A stretch of DNA of 64,000 nt from Escherichia coli (lineage in GTDB: Bacteria > Pseudomonadota > Gammaproteobacteria > Enterobacterales > Enterobacteriaceae), in assembly GCF_024502345.1 (NCBI RefSeq), contig NZ_JALDNN010000001.1; one strand, written 5' to 3'. The notes beneath the pieces were generated by a model. The model was not told where the DNA came from, did not search any database, and worked only from the letters and a program-made list of their open reading frames with translations. A program made the position numbers and the translations under genes. Shown in pieces: positions 1-8,985 of the stretch (positions within the stretch are counted from its first letter, which is position 1; each line of letters begins with the position of its first letter).

Positions 1-403
1 CTTTCACTGCGATATGACGCACAGAGATACGTTCACCATGCATTGCCGCTTTCGAACCAGTAAGCAGCGGATGCCACGCAGGTAAATCTTTACCTTCCGC
101 CAGCAAACGATAAGCGCAGGTCATTGGCAGCCATTCGAATGTTGGCAGATTTTCACGGGTTAATTTAATGCAGTCGGGTTCAAACTCGAAACGACGTTCG
201 TAGTTCCGACATTGACAGGTTTTAATATTGAGCTGGCGACAGGCGACGTTAGTGAAGTAGATTTCGTCGGTGTCTTCATCCATCAGTTTATGCAGGCAAC
301 ACTGACCGCAACCATCACACAACGACTCCCATTCCGCATCGCTCATTTCGTCCAGGGTTTTACTTTGCCAGAAAGGTACATCGCTCATCAGGTGTTCCGC
401 CAT
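1..403 (-). CDS. ycgN: UPF0260 protein YcgN, cut by the window edge (start codon at 401-403)
   Basis: Reverse-strand frame translates [15 protein letters not shown]... with CxxC motifs; lies downstream of ycgM as in K-12. Start codon choice is uncertain (second ATG at 386-388). Confidence 0.65.
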
Positions 404-479
404 TACGTTAAAACGCACCTTATAACCAGTCTGGCACAGCGATGCAAGTTTTGCCGCCGCTTTCAGGCGGCAAAAAGTA

Positions 480-1139
480 TTACAAAACGCGAGTTGCCAA
501 AGAATGCCCATCGAAAGTGACTGTCAGCTCATCACCGCTTTGCAACGGGCCGACGCCATCAGGCGTGCCTGTCAACACAACGTCACCGGCCTTGAGGGTA
601 AAAAACTTGCTCATATAAGCGATCAGCGGAACGATTTTATGGATCATGTCCGCAGTCGTACCTTGCTGGCGTTGTTCGCCGTTTACGCTCAGGCCCAGCG
701 TTGTATTTTGCGGGTCGCCGGTAAATTCCGCCGCGGGAATAAACCCGGAAAGCGGACAAGAGTTATCAAACGCTTTAGCCTTTTCCCACGGCTGCCCGGC
801 TGTCTTCATTTTTCCCTGAACATCACGCAACGTCAGATCGAGCGCCACGCCGTAACCGGCAATGGCTTTGCGGACATGTTCTTCCGTAGCCTGACGCAGC
901 GTCGCGCCAATCAACACCGCCAGTTCGACTTCATGATGAACTGAACCGAAATCGGATGGGATCGCCAATGGCTGCCGCAGATCGCACAGTGCCGTTTCTG
1001 GTTTAATAAACAGCACTGGCTCTTCGGGCACTGCGCTGCCCATCTCTTTAATATGTTTGGCATAGTTACTGCCAACACAGACTACTTTACTCACCGGATA
1101 ATCCAGCAGCGCACCTTGCCAGTTGTGATGTTGATACAT
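480..1139 (-). CDS. ycgM: Fumarylacetoacetate hydrolase family protein YcgM
   Basis: 219-aa ORF in the track; K-12 synteny with ycgL/ycgN. Confidence 0.9.
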
Positions 1140-1210
1140 AACGTTCCCCTCACCTTATCGTGGATATGAAAACCCGCGCCGACAAAGATAATGCCACCGC
1201 CGGATATCGG

Positions 1211-1537
1211 TTATTTGTTAGTGTCGTCTGTTTTCTGCCCCATGACGGAAAGATGTTGCTTCAGCAAATCTTCGGGTGGTGGCGGTAACTGCAAATAGTA
1301 ACCTTGCTCGGTTAATGCCTGTTTAACCTTTTCAATATCGGCATTGACCAGTTTCTTCCGCCCATCCAGCGGCAGAATCATCGCTAATTGAGGCTGACCA
1401 AAACCTTTCATCAGTTCCTCAGGAACACGAGAAAAATCGTCTTTTTTTTCGACATATAAATAGGTCTGGTCACGCTTGCTGCTTCGATAAATCACACAAA
1501 ACATACTTTTACTCTTTAAGATGCCAGGTTTTGGCAT
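1211..1537 (-). CDS. ycgL: YcgL domain protein
   Basis: 108-aa ORF; synteny next to minC-side genes. Confidence 0.85.
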
Positions 1538-1745
1538 AAGCTAACATCAATGAAACCCGCGCCACAAGCCAGCCAGCTGTAGATTTCTGCGGTTTGTTGA
1601 GTCCATGCCCCTTTATAAGTAATCCCCCCGGCAAAAAATGCCGCGCCGGGATTTTACCGAACGCAGAAAAGCCACTGGAATTCTCCCGTAAGGGATTGTT
1701 ATATTATAACAGTTCATCGTACTCATTCTGAACAGGAGACTACCA

Positions 1746-2147
1746 ATGAAAATCAAGAGCATCAGTAAGGCTGTATTGCTGCTTGCACTGCTAACCTCCA
1801 CGAGCTTTGCTGCGGGTAAGAATGTCAATGTTGAGTTCAGCAAAGGCCATAGCAGCGCTCAGTACTCCGGCGAAATAAAGGGATACGATTACGATACATA
1901 TACCTTCTATGCCAAAAAAGGTCAGAAAGTGCATGTGAGTATCTCTAATGAAGGCGCTGATACTTACCTCTTCGGGCCAGGAATCGATGATTCTGTTGAT
2001 TTATCCAGATATTCCCCTGAACTCGATAGTCACGGACAATACTCACTCCCTGCTTCTGGCAAATATGAGCTGCGAGTGCTGCAAACCCGAAACGACGCCC
2101 GTAAAAACAAAACTAAAAAATATAACGTCGATATTCAAATTAAGTAA
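1746..2147 (+). CDS. pliG: Periplasmic inhibitor of g-type lysozyme PliG (YcgK)
   Basis: 133-aa ORF with an N-terminal signal peptide (MKIKSISKAVLLLALLTSTSFA); synteny. Confidence 0.85.
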   Translation: MKIKSISKAVLLLALLTSTSFAAGKNVNVEFSKGHSSAQYSGEIKGYDYDTYTFYAKKGQKVHVSISNEGADTYLFGPGIDDSVDLSRYSPELDSHGQYSLPASGKYELRVLQTRNDARKNKTKKYNVDIQIK

Positions 2148-2266
2148 ATGTCAACCGACGGGGACTCTCCCCGTCATAAACGTTAACGCCCCACTCCTCT
2201 CTGTCGCTCAAGAGGTTAATGACGAATAGCAGACAATGCCGAATAGAACATAATGTAAACAAGGCA

Positions 2267-2635
2267 TCACTCACGACACATAAATAACATCTTTGTGGTG
2301 GTTTGATTGATTTTTCCACTCCGCTTACCATCCACACCAAAATAACGATCATCACGACATAATTTTTCTTTAACATCGCAAAATACACCGTTAGCGAATG
2401 TAAATTCGCTGGGATCGTAGCCTTGTAATGATTGTAAGTTTTCAGCGGCTTTTTCGCCGAGATATTTCCTTGTTAACTCTGGGGAAATGCCATCTGAGTT
2501 CACACAAATATACGGGTCGCAAACAACGCCGCACGCCGGAGATTGAAGTCCGCCAGCGTCATTTCCAGACGCCATTGATGAGAACATCATCCCCACACCT
2601 GACAATCCGATATAAAAAATACGCATCATATTCAT
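2267..2635 (-). CDS. ycgJ: Uncharacterised protein YcgJ
   Basis: 122-aa ORF; position between pliG and minC as in K-12. Confidence 0.8.
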   Translation of the reverse strand: MNMMRIFYIGLSGVGMMFSSMASGNDAGGLQSPACGVVCDPYICVNSDGISPELTRKYLGEKAAENLQSLQGYDPSEFTFANGVFCDVKEKLCRDDRYFGVDGKRSGKINQTTTKMLFMCRE

Positions 2636-3154
2636 AGCACATCCTGATAATCCAACCGTACAACACTTATGCTCATTTCATCATCAATCCGTAATCAAAA
2701 CCGCTGACCTGGACGAGTTACGATGACCTGACAGAAGTATCAGACGTCTTCTGCGGTTTCTATGATAGAGCAATTCTGTGGCGGATATTAAGATAACGGG
2801 TATCTGTTCTTTAATGATGCCGCAAAAAATGGAAAGTTAAGAAAGCCTGGCGTGGTGAAAAAATACACTTGCCTCAATACTGGATATTTAAACAGGTCTG
2901 GAGATGCTGTCACGATTAGGGTGCGGAAAAAGGAAGCGTAAATAAGAACAATCAAAAGTACGACGGCAATGGGTTGATTGACAAGGGTATTTTTTAAGCT
3001 ATGAATCAGCGCCATTTATCACTGAATAGACTTTTACTCTGAATAAATGGGAGGGTGACTTGCCTCAATATAATCCAGACTATAACATGCCTTATAGTCT
3101 TCGGAACATCATCGCGCGCTGGCGATGATTAATAGCTAATTGAGTAAGGCCAGG

Positions 3155-3850
3155 ATGTCAAACACGCCAATCGAGCTTAAAGGCAGTAGCTTCACTTTAT
3201 CTGTGGTTCATCTGCATGAGGCAGAACCTAAGGTTATCCATCAGGCGCTGGAAGACAAAATCGCTCAGGCCCCCGCATTTTTAAAACATGCCCCCGTTGT
3301 ACTCAACGTCAGTGCACTGGAAGACCCGGTAAACTGGTCAGCGATGCATAAGGCGGTTTCGGCAACCGGTTTGCGGGTTATTGGCGTAAGTGGCTGCAAA
3401 GATGCGCAACTTAAAGCCGAAATTGAAAAAATGGGGCTGCCTATCCTGACGGAAGGAAAGGAAAAAGCGCCACGTCCAGCTCCCGCACCGCAGGCTCCAG
3501 CGCAAAATACAACGCCGGTCACAAAAACGCGTTTAATAGATACCCCGGTGCGTTCCGGTCAGCGTATTTATGCTCCACAATGTGATCTGATTGTTACAAG
3601 CCACGTTAGCGCTGGGGCCGAATTGATTGCCGATGGTAACATTCATGTCTATGGCATGATGCGCGGTCGTGCGCTGGCAGGGGCAAGTGGTGACCGGGAA
3701 ACGCAAATATTTTGTACGAACCTGATGGCGGAATTGGTGTCCATCGCAGGTGAATACTGGCTGAGTGATCAAATCCCAGCAGAATTTTATGGCAAAGCGG
3801 CGCGACTGCAGTTAGTCGAAAACACTTTGACCGTTCAACCGTTAAATTGA
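3155..3850 (+). CDS. minC: Septum site-determining protein MinC
   Basis: ATG at 3155 gives [21 protein letters not shown]..., 231 aa; the track ORF begins 5 codons upstream at a TTG. Confidence 0.95.
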
Positions 3851-3873
3851 TCCCTTTTTAACAAGGAATTTCT

Positions 3874-4686
3874 ATGGCACGCATTATTGTTGTTACTTCG
3901 GGCAAAGGGGGTGTTGGTAAGACAACCTCCAGCGCGGCCATCGCCACTGGTTTGGCCCAGAAGGGAAAGAAAACTGTCGTGATAGATTTTGATATCGGCC
4001 TGCGTAATCTCGACCTGATTATGGGTTGCGAACGCCGGGTCGTTTACGATTTCGTCAACGTCATTCAGGGCGATGCAACGCTAAATCAGGCGTTAATTAA
4101 AGATAAGCGTACTGAAAATCTCTATATTCTGCCGGCATCGCAAACACGCGATAAAGATGCCCTCACCCGTGAAGGGGTCGCCAAAGTTCTTGATGATCTG
4201 AAAGCGATGGATTTTGAATTTATCGTTTGTGACTCCCCGGCAGGGATTGAAACCGGTGCGTTAATGGCACTCTATTTTGCAGACGAAGCCATTATTACCA
4301 CCAACCCGGAAGTCTCCTCAGTACGCGACTCTGACCGTATTTTAGGCATTCTGGCGTCAAAATCACGCCGCGCAGAAAATGGCGAAGAGCCTATTAAAGA
4401 GCACCTGCTGTTAACGCGCTATAACCCAGGCCGCGTAAGCAGAGGTGACATGCTGAGCATGGAAGATGTGCTGGAGATCCTGCGCATCAAACTCGTCGGC
4501 GTGATCCCAGAGGATCAATCAGTATTGCGCGCCTCTAACCAGGGTGAGCCGGTCATTCTCGACATTAACGCCGATGCGGGTAAAGCCTACGCAGATACCG
4601 TAGAACGTCTGTTGGGAGAAGAACGTCCTTTCCGCTTCATTGAAGAAGAGAAGAAAGGCTTCCTCAAACGCTTGTTCGGAGGATAA
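3874..4686 (+). CDS. minD: Septum site-determining ATPase MinD
   Basis: 270-aa ORF with Walker A GKGGVGKTT; deviant ParA/MinD family. Confidence 0.97.
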   Translation: MARIIVVTSGKGGVGKTTSSAAIATGLAQKGKKTVVIDFDIGLRNLDLIMGCERRVVYDFVNVIQGDATLNQALIKDKRTENLYILPASQTRDKDALTREGVAKVLDDLKAMDFEFIVCDSPAGIETGALMALYFADEAIITTNPEVSSVRDSDRILGILASKSRRAENGEEPIKEHLLLTRYNPGRVSRGDMLSMEDVLEILRIKLVGVIPEDQSVLRASNQGEPVILDINADAGKAYADTVERLLGEERPFRFIEEEKKGFLKRLFGG

Positions 4687-4689
4687 GTT

Positions 4690-4956
4690 ATGGCATTACT
4701 CGATTTCTTTCTCTCGCGGAAGAAAAATACAGCCAACATTGCAAAAGAACGGCTGCAGATTATTGTTGCTGAACGCCGTCGCAGCGATGCAGAACCGCAT
4801 TATCTGCCGCAGTTGCGTAAAGATATTCTTGAGGTCATTTGTAAATACGTACAAATTGATCCTGAGATGGTAACCGTACAGCTTGAGCAAAAAGATGGCG
4901 ATATTTCTATTCTTGAGCTGAACGTGACCTTACCGGAAGCAGAAGAGCTGAAATAA
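4690..4956 (+). CDS. minE: Cell division topological specificity factor MinE
   Basis: 88-aa [34 protein letters not shown]... Confidence 0.97.
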
Positions 4957-4982
4957 TCCCGCTGTAAAAGCGCATTTATCTT

Positions 4983-5014
4983 CAAGGCAGAGTTATCTCT
5001 GCCTTGAGTTTTTC
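4983..5014 (+). terminator. Intrinsic terminator downstream of minE
   Basis: Stem caaggcaga/tctgccttg with loop gttatc, followed by agtttttc. Confidence 0.7.
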
Positions 5015-5103
5015 ATCCCTCTCATCCACGTTGTGGTAAAGCGGCGAGTATTCTTGCTGATACTCCTCATTGCTATTTCCACCTCCCCCTTTACACCTTA
5101 AGG

Positions 5104-6160
5104 GGCTTTGTTGAATAAATCGAACTTTTGCTGAGTTGAAGGATCAGATCACGTATCTTCCCGACAACGCAGACCGTTCCGTGGCAAAGCAAAAGTTCAA
5201 AATCACCAACTGGCCCACCTACAATAAAGCCCTCATCAACCGTGGCTCCATAACTTTCTGGCTGGATGATGAAGCTATTCAGGCCTGGTATGAGTCAGCA
5301 ACACCTTCTTCACGAGGCAGACCTCAGCGCTATTCTGACCTTGCCATCACGACTGTGCTGGTCATTAAACGCGTATTCAGGCTGACCCTGCGCGCTGCGC
5401 AGGGCTTTATTGATTCCATTTTTTCTCTGATGAACGTTCCGCTACGCTGCCCGGATTACAGCTGTGTCAGCAGGCGGGCAAAGTCGGTTAATGTCAGTTT
5501 CAAAACGCCCACCCGGGGTGAAATCGCACACCTGGTAATTGATTCCACCGGGCTGAAGGTCTTCGGTGAAGGCGAGTGGAAAGTCAAAAAGCATGGCCAG
5601 GAACGCCGCCGTATCTGGCGTAAGCTGCATCTCGCCGTTGACAGTAAAACACATGAAATCATCTGCGCTGACCTGTCGCTGAACAACGTTACGGACTCAG
5701 AGGCCTTCCCCGGGTTAATCCGGCAAACCCACCGGAAAATCAGGTCAGCCGCCGCCGATGGCGCTTACGATACCCGGCTATGTCACGATGAACTGCGGCG
5801 TAAGAAAATCAGCGCGCTTATCCCTCCCCGAAAAGGTGCGGGTTACTGGCCCGGTGAATATGCAGACCGTAACCGTGCAGTGGCTAATCAGCGAATGACC
5901 GGGAGTAATGCGCGGTGGAAATGGACAACAGATTACAACCGTCGCTCGATAGCGGAAACGGCGATGTACCGGGTAAAACAGCTGTTCGGGGGTTCACTGA
6001 CACTGCGTGACTACGATGGTCAGGTTGCAGAGGCTATGGCCCTGGTACGAGCGCTGAACAAAATGACGAAAGCAGGTATGCCTGAAAGCGTGCGTATTGC
6101 CTGAAAACACAACCCGCTACGGGGGAGACTTACCCGAAATCTGATTTATTCAACAAAGCC
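5104..6160 (+). mobile_element. IS903-group insertion sequence (IS5 family), copy 1, 1057 bp, no target-site duplication
   Basis: Perfect 18-bp terminal inverted repeats GGCTTTGTTGAATAAATC (5104-5121 and 6143-6160); length 1057 bp; transposase ORF. Flanking 9-mers differ (ACCTTAAGG vs ATCGTGCAC). Confidence 0.93.
5181..6104 (+). CDS. IS903-type transposase (307 aa from GTG at 5181; the track ORF starts at TTG 5136)
   Basis: Translation VAKQKFKITNWPTYNKALINRGSITFWLDDEAIQAWYESATPSSRGRPQRYSDL... matches the IS903/IS102 transposase family from memory. Confidence 0.9.
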   Translation: MAKQKFKITNWPTYNKALINRGSITFWLDDEAIQAWYESATPSSRGRPQRYSDLAITTVLVIKRVFRLTLRAAQGFIDSIFSLMNVPLRCPDYSCVSRRAKSVNVSFKTPTRGEIAHLVIDSTGLKVFGEGEWKVKKHGQERRRIWRKLHLAVDSKTHEIICADLSLNNVTDSEAFPGLIRQTHRKIRSAAADGAYDTRLCHDELRRKKISALIPPRKGAGYWPGEYADRNRAVANQRMTGSNARWKWTTDYNRRSIAETAMYRVKQLFGGSLTLRDYDGQVAEAMALVRALNKMTKAGMPESVRIA

Positions 6161-6208
6161 ATCGTGCACACTACGCAGTCTCACAACTAACAAGAGGTTA
6201 TTATCCTG

Positions 6209-6613
6209 ATGGATCAGGTCGTTGTTTTTCAAAAGATGTTTGAGCAAGTGAGAAAAGAGCAAAACTTCTCCTGGTTTTATTCAGAATTAAAACATCACCG
6301 TATTGCACATTACATTTATTATCTGGCTACGGATAACATCAGAATTATTACTCACGATGACACGGTTTTGTTATTAAGAGGAACCAGGAACCTGTTAAAA
6401 GTTAGTACGACCAAGAACCCTGCTAAAATAAAAGAGGCCGCATTGCTTCATATTTGCGGAAAATCTACATTTCGGGAATACTGTTCAACACTGGCAGACG
6501 CGGGCGTTTTCCGTTGGGTTACTGATGTTAATCATAACAAACGCAGTTACTACGCCATTGATAATACGCTTTTATATATTGAAGATGTAGAAAATAATAA
6601 ACCATTAATCTAG
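6209..6613 (+). CDS. ycgX: DUF1398 family protein, YcgX-like
   Basis: 134-aa ORF immediately upstream of iraM, the K-12 position of ycgX. The protein sequence itself was not matched from memory. Confidence 0.6.
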   Translation: MDQVVVFQKMFEQVRKEQNFSWFYSELKHHRIAHYIYYLATDNIRIITHDDTVLLLRGTRNLLKVSTTKNPAKIKEAALLHICGKSTFREYCSTLADAGVFRWVTDVNHNKRSYYAIDNTLLYIEDVENNKPLI

Positions 6614-6828
6614 CTAAAGTTGGATGCTTAAGAAATGCTTCATAATTCAGTATGGCATTAGCATAATGGGAATAAAAGTACAGAGACTATCCCTATGGAT
6701 GATAAATACTGTCCTTTTATTGCTACCCATAAATAATCACCTGGCCAATACTATCAAATTGATATTTGAAATGTGATCACTTGACTTTCTATACGTTATT
6801 TCATAACGTTTAATATATTTATAAAAAC

Positions 6829-6851
6829 AACGGGCGTGCCATACGCCCGTT
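6829..6851. terminator. Hairpin aacgggcgt-gccat-acgcccgtt in the ycgX-iraM spacer; likely terminator
   Basis: Perfect 9-bp stem; the reverse strand is followed by a T-rich run. About 85% similar over roughly 50 bp to the hairpin at 7689-7711. Confidence 0.5.
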
Positions 6852-7308
6852 TCAATACTTAACGCACATGTGTTTTGGTTTAGTCATCATCCAGTTATAT
6901 GTATTTTAGCCAGGAACAGGTTAAACCTTTCCTATATAACTCAAAAATTGAAACCTTATTCTCATGTCATGCTTATATTCATTATTATCGTTATATAAAA
7001 AGGCAACCATAATGTTTAGCAAATTGGCACAAAGTAGCATAAAGGCTATGTTTTAATTACAGGATGGTCAGTCATTTGAATGTATAACATTATAGCTAAA
7101 CAAATCTAAAACGAAGTGAATAATTTATTGTTTTCACTAAATCTCATTTTGTTTAACATCCATTGAGATTCCTTGCTTTAAATTTTGTTTTATATAAGCA
7201 ATTGTTTTAATTAATTTATTTTTTGAAGGGGTAATATACTCATATGCAAAATAAAGAAATGAACATCCAAATGAACTATATTAAATACCGTGGGATAAGA
7301 CATAACAA

Positions 7309-7632
7309 ATGAAGTGGGTAGTAATTGACACGGTAATTCAACCTACATGCGGCATATCTTTTTCAGCCATATGGGGTGATATGAAAATGATTATCTGGTA
7401 TCAATCTACTATATTTCTTCCTCCTGGAAGTATATTTACACTGGTTAAGCCTGGTATTATCCTTAAGGATAAAGAATATCCTATAACTATTTATAACATT
7501 GCACCATTCAACAAGAATTTATGGAGTTTACTCAAAAGCAGTCAAGAGTGTCCTCCAGGAGAAAGCGAAATAACAAATAAATGTTTGCATAAGAGTTGTA
7601 TTATAAAAATATGCCCATATGGGCTCAAGTAA
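7309..7632 (+). CDS. iraM: Anti-adaptor protein IraM (stabilises RpoS against RssB)
   Basis: 107-aa [44 protein letters not shown]...; long AT-rich upstream region; adjacent to icd. Confidence 0.85.
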
Positions 7633-7688
7633 TGGGTTTTATATAAATATGCTCGATATGCTATTAATAATATCCACATAAATAAAAC

Positions 7689-7711
7689 AACGGGCGTGTT
7701 ATACGCCCGTT
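7689..7711. terminator. Bidirectional intrinsic terminator between convergent iraM and icd
   Basis: Stem aacgggcgt/acgcccgtt with loop gttat; on the reverse strand it is followed by GTTTTATTTAT, directly downstream of the icd stop. Confidence 0.7.
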
Positions 7712-7734
7712 TAAATATTTAACACATGTAGTGA

Positions 7735-8985
7735 TTACATATTTTTGATGATCGCATCACCAAACTCTGAACATTTCAGCAGTTTAGCGCCTTCCATCAG
7801 ACGTTCGAAGTCATAGGTTACGGTCTTCGCATTGATTGCGCCTTCCATACCTTTAACAATCAGGTCTGCGGCTTCGGTCCAACCCATGTGGCGTAACATC
7901 ATCTCAGCAGAGAGAATAATAGAACCTGGGTTAACTTTGTCCTGACCGGCATATTTCGGCGCAGTACCGTGGGTGGCTTCAAACAGGGCGCATTCGTCAC
8001 CGATGTTTGCACCAGGGGCGATACCGATACCGCCAACCTGCGCTGCCAGGGCGTCAGAAATGTAGTCACCGTTCAGGTTCATACAGGCGATAACATCATA
8101 TTCAGCCGGACGCAGCAGGATCTGTTGCAGGAATGCATCAGCAATCACGTCTTTAATGACGATCTCTTTGCCGGTATTCGGGTTTTTAACTTTCAGCCAC
8201 GGGCCGCCGTCGATCAGTTCACCGCCAAATTCTTCACGCGCCAGCTGGTAGCCCCAGTCTTTAAACGCGCCTTCGGTGAACTTCATGATGTTGCCTTTGT
8301 GCACCAGGGTCACAGAGTCACGATCGTTAGCAATTGCGTATTCGATCGCTGCACGAACCAGACGTTTGGTGCCTTCTTCAGAACACGGCTTAATACCGAT
8401 ACCGCAATGTTCCGGGAAGCGAATTTTCTTCACGCCCATCTCTTCACGCAGGAATTTAATCACTTTCTCGGCGTCGGCAGAGTCAGCTTTCCATTCGATA
8501 CCCGCATAAATGTCTTCCGAGTTTTCACGGAAGATAACCATATCGGTCAGTTCAGGGTGTTTAACCGGGCTTGGAGTGCCCTGATAGTAACGTACCGGAC
8601 GCAGGCAGATGTAGAGATCCAGTTCCTGGCGCAGGGCAACGTTCAGAGAGCGAATACCGCCACCAACCGGAGTGGTCAGCGGGCCTTTAATGGCAACGCG
8701 ATATTCACGAATCAGATCAAGGGTTTCAGCAGGCAGCCAGACATCCTGACCATAAACCTGTGTGGATTTTTCACCGGTGTAAATTTCCATCCAGGAGATT
8801 TTACGCTCGCCTTTATAGGCTTTCTCGACTGCAGCGTCGACCACTTTCAGCATGGCTGGGGTTACATCTACACCGATTCCATCACCTTCAATGTAAGGGA
8901 TAATCGGATTTTCAGGAACGTTGAGTTTGCCGTTTTGCAGGGTGATCTTCTTGCCTTGTGCCGGAACAACTACTTTACTTTCCAT
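7735..8985 (-). CDS. icd: Isocitrate dehydrogenase (NADP)
   Basis: 416-aa [41 protein letters not shown]...; no prophage is attached to its 3' end. Confidence 0.97.

Follow-up and report, generated by a model that had tools for sequence, protein, structure and literature searches.

Does the 75-codon open reading frame (ORF) that lies on the reverse strand between ycgJ and minC of Escherichia coli encode a small membrane protein that annotators have overlooked? The ORF was pointed out in an initial annotation of a window of 64,000 nucleotides (the whole stretch of DNA that was analysed), which described it as unannotated and AT-rich, with a helix-like hydrophobic stretch and no obvious ribosome-binding site, and suggested that it may well be a chance ORF. 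Its coordinates, strand and quoted sequence were all reproduced (Table 1). The ORF is located in a spacer of 519 bp, and the GC content was 0.39 in the ORF and 0.41 in the spacer, consistent with the description as AT-rich.

No annotated feature was present between minC and ycgJ in the K-12 genome (NC_000913.3), and no feature covered this spacer in the RefSeq records inspected. The ORF was therefore correctly described as unannotated for these records, although calls exist in GenBank: the exact protein is entered as "hypothetical protein" in many E. coli and Shigella records, and it was encountered on at least 1000 contigs and is one of 105 clustered variants. Such repeated calls by gene callers would be expected of a genuine small single-pass membrane protein gene missed by K-12 annotation, but RefSeq and K-12 curation, which include the 19-aa ymgN, left the ORF out, and in view of the results described below we consider such a gene highly improbable. 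YmgN (b4816) is annotated in K-12 antisense inside pliG (L001:3869-3928, corresponding to K-12 1227368-1227427), approximately 1 kb from the ORF; the curators included this very small protein and omitted the 75-codon ORF.

Of 5426 complete E. coli genomes, 5420 contained the ORF region, and its sequence in the window was 100% identical to those of K-12 and BL21; the spacer was 99.8% identical to that of most of the complete genomes. In the same search, 12 matches to the ORF region were located on plasmid-typed records, and some genomes possessed two. The ORF region was split in NZ_CM170063.1, an assembly labelled K-12.

We examined whether the ORF carries the signals of a coding sequence. When the 519-bp spacer was shuffled with its dinucleotide composition preserved, an ATG ORF of at least 75 codons appeared in 496 of 5000 shuffles (~10%), and the length of the ORF is thus within chance expectation. 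The best pairing with the anti-Shine-Dalgarno sequence in the 20 nt 5' of the ORF start was -0.4 kcal/mol, weaker than the median of random 20-mers (-2.2 kcal/mol) and that of long ORFs (-3.8 kcal/mol), while the duplexes at the ycgJ and minC starts reached -5.0 kcal/mol; the suspected lack of a ribosome-binding site was thereby confirmed. The codon log-likelihood of the ORF was -0.075 bits per codon, compared with -0.06 ± 0.20 for spurious ORFs (ORFs out of frame within real genes) and 0.34 ± 0.12 for long ORFs, and was below that of all 47 long ORFs of the window (minimum 0.039). Codon usage is therefore of the spurious-ORF type and not host-like. A search of Pfam and NCBIfam with the ORF protein returned nothing beyond a meaningless weak match to BBS1.

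The hydrophobic stretch was real. The best 19-residue segment (residues 16-34) had a mean Kyte-Doolittle value of 2.51 and has sufficient length to span a membrane. None of the window's 43 spurious ORFs attained this mean, which arose in 14 of 2000 nucleotide shuffles (0.7%). Together with the ATG start and the 75 codons, this segment is the attraction of the membrane-protein gene; the missing Shine-Dalgarno sequence, the non-coding codon usage and the chance length argue against it.

To examine selection on the reading frame, we compared the ORF with that of Escherichia sp. MOD1-EC7003 (L002), a close relative of E. coli. There were 19 differences in 228 nt, distributed 7/6/6 over the three codon positions, and pN/pS was 1.20 for the ORF, compared with 0.06 for minC and 0.46 for ycgJ. 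Divergence from MOD1-EC7003 was 8.3% in the ORF, the maximum of the spacer, versus 3.6-4.6% in the flanks. Among seven diverse E. coli, the ORF had 10 segregating sites (positions 3/4/3; 7 nonsynonymous), the most of any non-coding segment, whereas minC had 21 (positions 5/1/15; 16 synonymous). Further, a C-terminal frameshift was detected in natural alleles of the ORF (P0017, P0019 and, from Shigella dysenteriae, protein P0020). These patterns show no purifying selection on the reading frame.

The frame was open in all eight Escherichia sequences inspected, including every sampled E. coli and MOD1-EC7003, which speaks for a membrane-protein gene. However, an open frame within E. coli carries little weight, because neutral DNA stays open at a within-species divergence of 2% or less, and we estimate the chance of acquiring no stop codon over the 19 substitutions to the sister clade at roughly 0.4. 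The pN/pS ratio, the even spread of substitutions over codon positions and the frameshifted alleles in isolates all argue against a gene under selection. In addition, no homologue of the ORF protein outside E. coli and Shigella was found among 5.8 billion proteins searched; all relatives shared at least 84% identity, and every match with a named source was from E. coli or Shigella.

We compared the minC locus of 80 species-representative enterobacterial genomes. In 73 of the 80 loci, ycgL was located 121-127 bp from minC in divergent orientation (hereafter, the empty site), and across the loci the similarity to the E. coli spacer ended at window position 3020-3032. In Intestinirhabdus alba (L047), ycgL is 330 bp from minC instead of the usual 121-127 bp, and this locus may hold a further small insertion or relic at that position. 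In E. coli, the two genes are separated by an insertion in which GC content falls to 0.40-0.45 (window 1400-3200), compared with about 0.50-0.55 in the flanks. The insertion is bounded by direct repeats with an exact 11-nt core, whereas E. albertii and Salmonella have one copy of the repeated site, with the ycgL start codon inside it, at their empty site. The features that identify an integrated element were thus found here: direct repeats present just once where the site is empty, empty as well as integrase-occupied sites among relatives (see below), and atypical composition. The initial annotation had described a roughly 500-bp region thought to contain only minC promoters; only the ~135 bp adjacent to minC (3020-3154) are ancestral promoter and leader, and the rest is the right end of the element.

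Table 1. Features of the ycgL-minC region (window coordinates)
Feature	Position	Strand	Remarks
Left direct repeat (attL-like) CACAAAACATACTTTTACTCT	1495..1515		Repeat family D2; conserved ycgL start codon within it (CAT on plus strand, 1502-1504)
Low-GC insertion, ~1.5 kb	1516..3019		Holds pliG, ycgJ and integrase relic; absent from most Enterobacteriaceae
pliG	1746-2147	+	Inside insertion
ycgJ	2267-2635	-	Inside insertion
Weak sigma-70-like site (TTAATA, 18 nt, TATCAT)	2762..2791	-	Just past ORF stop codon; consensus match only
75-codon ATG ORF (MALIHSL...RYPLS)	2788..3015	-	K-12 coordinates 1226220..1226447 (+)
Tyrosine integrase 3'-end relic, ~codons 294-349 of 349	2809..2978	+	blastn, tblastn, alignment
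Hydrophobic run PIAVVLLIVLIYASFF, codons 15-30 of the ORF	2926..2973	-	Reverse complement of purine-rich 3' tail of integrase relic, GAAAAAGGAAGCGTAAATAAGAACAATCAAAAGTACGACGGCAATGGG
Right direct repeat (attR-like) CACTGAATAGACTTTTACTCT	3020..3040		Repeat family D2
Ancestral minC-ycgL spacer with minC promoter and leader	3041..3154	+	Conserved across Enterobacteriaceae
minC	3155-3850	+	

The insertion was also carried by MOD1-EC7003. In this genome, ycgJ and the ORF region were present and pliG was missing between ycgL and ycgJ (L002:1929-2112), reflecting either loss of the gene from this genome or its later acquisition by E. coli. With the exception of ycgJ in MOD1-EC7003, neither pliG nor ycgJ was located upstream of minC in the other 79 species loci, and the two genes may be cargo of the decayed element. 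In the ycgJ-pliG spacer (2148-2266), a 17-bp indel was polymorphic among E. coli, with the long form in the window and L083-L086 and the short form in K-12, L087 and L088.

The ORF itself lies over the remains of an integrase gene. Window positions 2809-2998 were homologous to the last ~57 codons of a tyrosine integrase and to the sequence just past its stop codon. In local alignments from which the shared conserved minC leader was excluded, 119 of 190 positions were identical to the integrase gene of Trabulsiella (L061), with z = 24 against shuffles, and z was 16-23 for the corresponding sequences of Atlantibacter (L079), Pseudocitrobacter (L080) and Citrobacter sp. R56 (L018); the blastn identity to these four sequences was 66-71%. 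The similarity to the integrase extended beyond the attachment site, as indicated by local alignment without the conserved core. The plus strand of the relic reads VVKKYTCLNTGYLNR where the integrase has MVKKYAHLSAEHLNR, a region that we take to be the C-terminal catalytic-tyrosine motif of tyrosine recombinases.

At the same site, Trabulsiella and Atlantibacter possess an intact integrase ORF of 349 aa, and Pseudocitrobacter has a split copy; in all three, the integrase points toward minC and ends ~180 bp before it. The intact integrase matched PF00589 (E = 5e-28), and its product shared 65% identity with the Hafnia phage Meifeng integrase. Citrobacter sp. R56 carries an intermediate relic (residues 270-338, 75% amino-acid identity) and has left-end sequence in common with E. 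coli. In E. coli, the relic is a fragment in which every plus-strand frame is disrupted by a frameshift and stop codons; it therefore cannot encode a recombinase. No intact copy covering at least 80% of the integrase query was detected in the 5426 complete E. coli genomes, in which only the conserved recombinase box matched other integrases.

A 13-nt exact repeat, ACTTGCCTCAATA (family D3), occurs at 2867-2879 in the relic and at 3058-3070 in the conserved region upstream of minC, where it precedes the mapped minC start sites by ~25-35 nt. MOD1-EC7003 reads GCTCGCCTCAACA at the relic copy, and E. coli has changed four positions, all toward the minC-proximal copy; this may reflect chance or a short conversion tract.

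The initial annotation had proposed that conservation of the frame be checked in other Enterobacteriaceae, and beyond E. coli and its closest clade the frame was missing or disrupted in all relatives. Among the 80 minC loci, the ORF sequence was absent from E. albertii, E. whittamii, Salmonella and most other Enterobacteriaceae. Where homologous DNA was present in four other taxa, the equivalent antisense frame lacked an ATG in all four and was interrupted by an internal stop codon in Trabulsiella and Pseudocitrobacter. The residues equivalent to the hydrophobic run (e.g., PVADIFLLLSVSISFS) were not consistently hydrophobic in these taxa. Because the intact elements have no ATG, open frame or clean helix, the ORF and its "helix" are attributed to substitutions in the E. 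coli lineage. We had also considered a conserved phage gene antisense to the integrase, which was ruled out by the absence of the start codon and of the open frame from the intact elements. For a membrane-protein gene, likewise, the lack of any homologue outside the species group and the missing start and broken frame in other genera are adverse.

The hydrophobic run is explained by its position opposite the 3' tail of the integrase gene. This tail, purine- and A-rich, becomes T-rich when reverse-complemented and yields codons for Leu, Ile, Val and Phe. It is conceivable, though very unlikely in our judgement, that an E. coli-specific de novo gene has been caught early here, in which lineage substitutions created the T-rich transmembrane-like segment and the old ycgL promoter together with Shine-Dalgarno-free translation yields a small membrane peptide.

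We asked whether the ORF region could be transcribed. The ATG (3013-3015) is located 5 nt inside the element from the right-hand direct repeat. On the minus strand, the ORF is immediately preceded by the ancestral ycgL leader, with AGAGTAAAAGT duplicated at both junctions; the ORF starts 15 nt past this duplicated leader, and therefore the ancestral ycgL promoter could transcribe it. Read-through from this orphaned promoter with low-level, unselected translation would make the ORF a translated but non-functional sequence or a very young proto-gene. No terminator-like site was found from the ycgL leader copy to ycgJ, and the neutral evolution of the frame is compatible with an unselected product. 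However, SMRT-Cappable-seq, a data set of limited depth, contains no K-12 plus-strand start site between 1226141 and 1227685 (PMC6131387), the start lacks a Shine-Dalgarno sequence, with the old Shine-Dalgarno-like AGAG of ycgL ~25 nt from the ATG, and the peptide was not among the matches listed in the EHEC intergenic Ribo-seq tables (Hücker et al.). Nor was the ORF among the matches listed in the acid-stress Ribo-seq tables. We therefore regard translation of this kind as unlikely.

The mapped minCDE transcription start sites (K-12 1226139 and 1226141, corresponding to window 3096 and 3094; PMC6131387) lie within the ancestral spacer. Scans for consensus promoters and terminators, applied to the E. 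coli spacer and to the empty sites of E. albertii and Salmonella, revealed no sites above chance expectation. Since these scans missed the published minC promoter, they are uninformative on the orphaned ycgL promoter. The weak sigma-70-like site that abuts the stop codon of the ORF is a possible ycgJ promoter by its match to the consensus; it is not evidence of function, because one site was found versus 1.6 expected in shuffles.

This site bears on a possible non-coding role for the segment, which might, for instance, serve ycgJ as its promoter or long leader or bind regulators of minC or ycgJ, in which case the ORF would be incidental. The segment is directly upstream of ycgJ on the same strand and is fixed in E. 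coli. On the other hand, its divergence is the highest in the spacer (8.3% vs 3.6-4.6%), it exceeds the other non-coding segments in segregating sites, the promoter sites were not above chance, and an Rfam search of window 1-8000 at a permissive threshold found no match in the spacer. A non-coding role thus seems improbable. Full-text literature searches, on ycgJ together with minC and on ycgJ by itself, returned nothing relevant.

The left junction bears on the start of ycgL. K-12 YcgL is annotated as 108 aa with its start at 1227681 (region at window 1504-1537, minus strand; K-12 1227681-1227714). The ATG that is conserved in other genera (MFCVIYRS, window 1504) gives a 97-aa YcgL, as RefSeq uses for BL21. 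The ycgLMN start site mapped by SMRT-Cappable-seq (1227685) is 4 nt inside the 108-aa ORF (PMC6131387). The shorter start looks correct because the 11 extra codons are located in element DNA beyond the left repeat.

Based on the homology to an integrase, the direct repeats at both ends, the empty site of related genomes and the missing coding signature, we conclude that the ORF is very probably (roughly 85%) an accidental open frame, specific to the E. coli lineage and antisense on a decayed tyrosine-integrase fragment, and not a functional gene. An ancient integrative element, either a prophage or an island, would have inserted between ycgL and minC at the 11-nt site ACTTTTACTCT, which directly precedes the ycgL start codon; the direction and timing of this event are inferred. 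Decay of the element would then have left pliG, ycgJ and ~57 integrase codons, with the relic marking its right end and the frame of the ORF running antisense through the relic. The ORF is presumably untranslated. The suggestion that it may well be a chance ORF accordingly held up, given the lack of a ribosome-binding site, the chance length, the non-coding codons, the absence of purifying selection and the missing or disrupted frame in other taxa.

E. coli K-12 contains remnants of cryptic prophages and integrative elements such as CP4-6, e14, CPS-53 and CP4-57. Like these, the minC-side element is a low-GC insertion with short flanking repeats, an integrase at its boundary, an empty site in relatives and few cargo genes kept. 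Unlike these, it is far more decayed (~1.5 kb in total, with ~57 integrase codons), its insertion site is the 5' end of the protein-coding gene ycgL, with no tRNA gene in the aligned empty sites, and its relic in the spacer is unannotated in NC_000913.3 and the RefSeq records inspected. The closest counterparts are the integrases of Trabulsiella guamensis and Atlantibacter sp. RC6, with which the relic shares 63-66% nucleotide identity, the orientation and the distance from minC; in contrast to them, only a fragment, interrupted by a frameshift and stop codons, is left in E. coli. The nearest phage relative of the Trabulsiella and Atlantibacter integrases is that of Hafnia phage vB_HpaM_Meifeng. 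Relics of this sort are well known as a class, and the one described here is unannotated.

Hemm, Storz and colleagues have reportedly described a class of small single-transmembrane proteins in E. coli. Validated members of this class were confirmed by tagging, and many were found via ribosome-binding sites and conservation. The ORF resembles them in being short and in having one hydrophobic helix-like segment, but it lacks both a ribosome-binding site and cross-species conservation. Antisense or de novo ORFs of EHEC include laoB (PMC5810103), pop (PMC7103648) and ano (PMC5960689). Like the present one, these ORFs are reportedly taxonomically restricted and antisense to a coding sequence (here, a former one); unlike the present ORF, they reportedly rest on RNA-seq and Ribo-seq signals, whereas ours is known from sequence, and every sequence test argues against selection.

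As a gene candidate, the ORF is therefore of little importance; its omission by K-12 curators and RefSeq is supported, and the "hypothetical protein" calls in GenBank are likely over-predictions. The locus illustrates a trap for ORF scans, in which a purine-rich gene tail, when reverse-complemented, gives rise to a convincing-looking transmembrane ORF. Further, the data support the 97-aa start of ycgL. The 519-bp minC-ycgJ spacer is explained as the decayed right end of an integrative element, which would have carried or trapped pliG and ycgJ and separated ycgL from its ancestral promoter.
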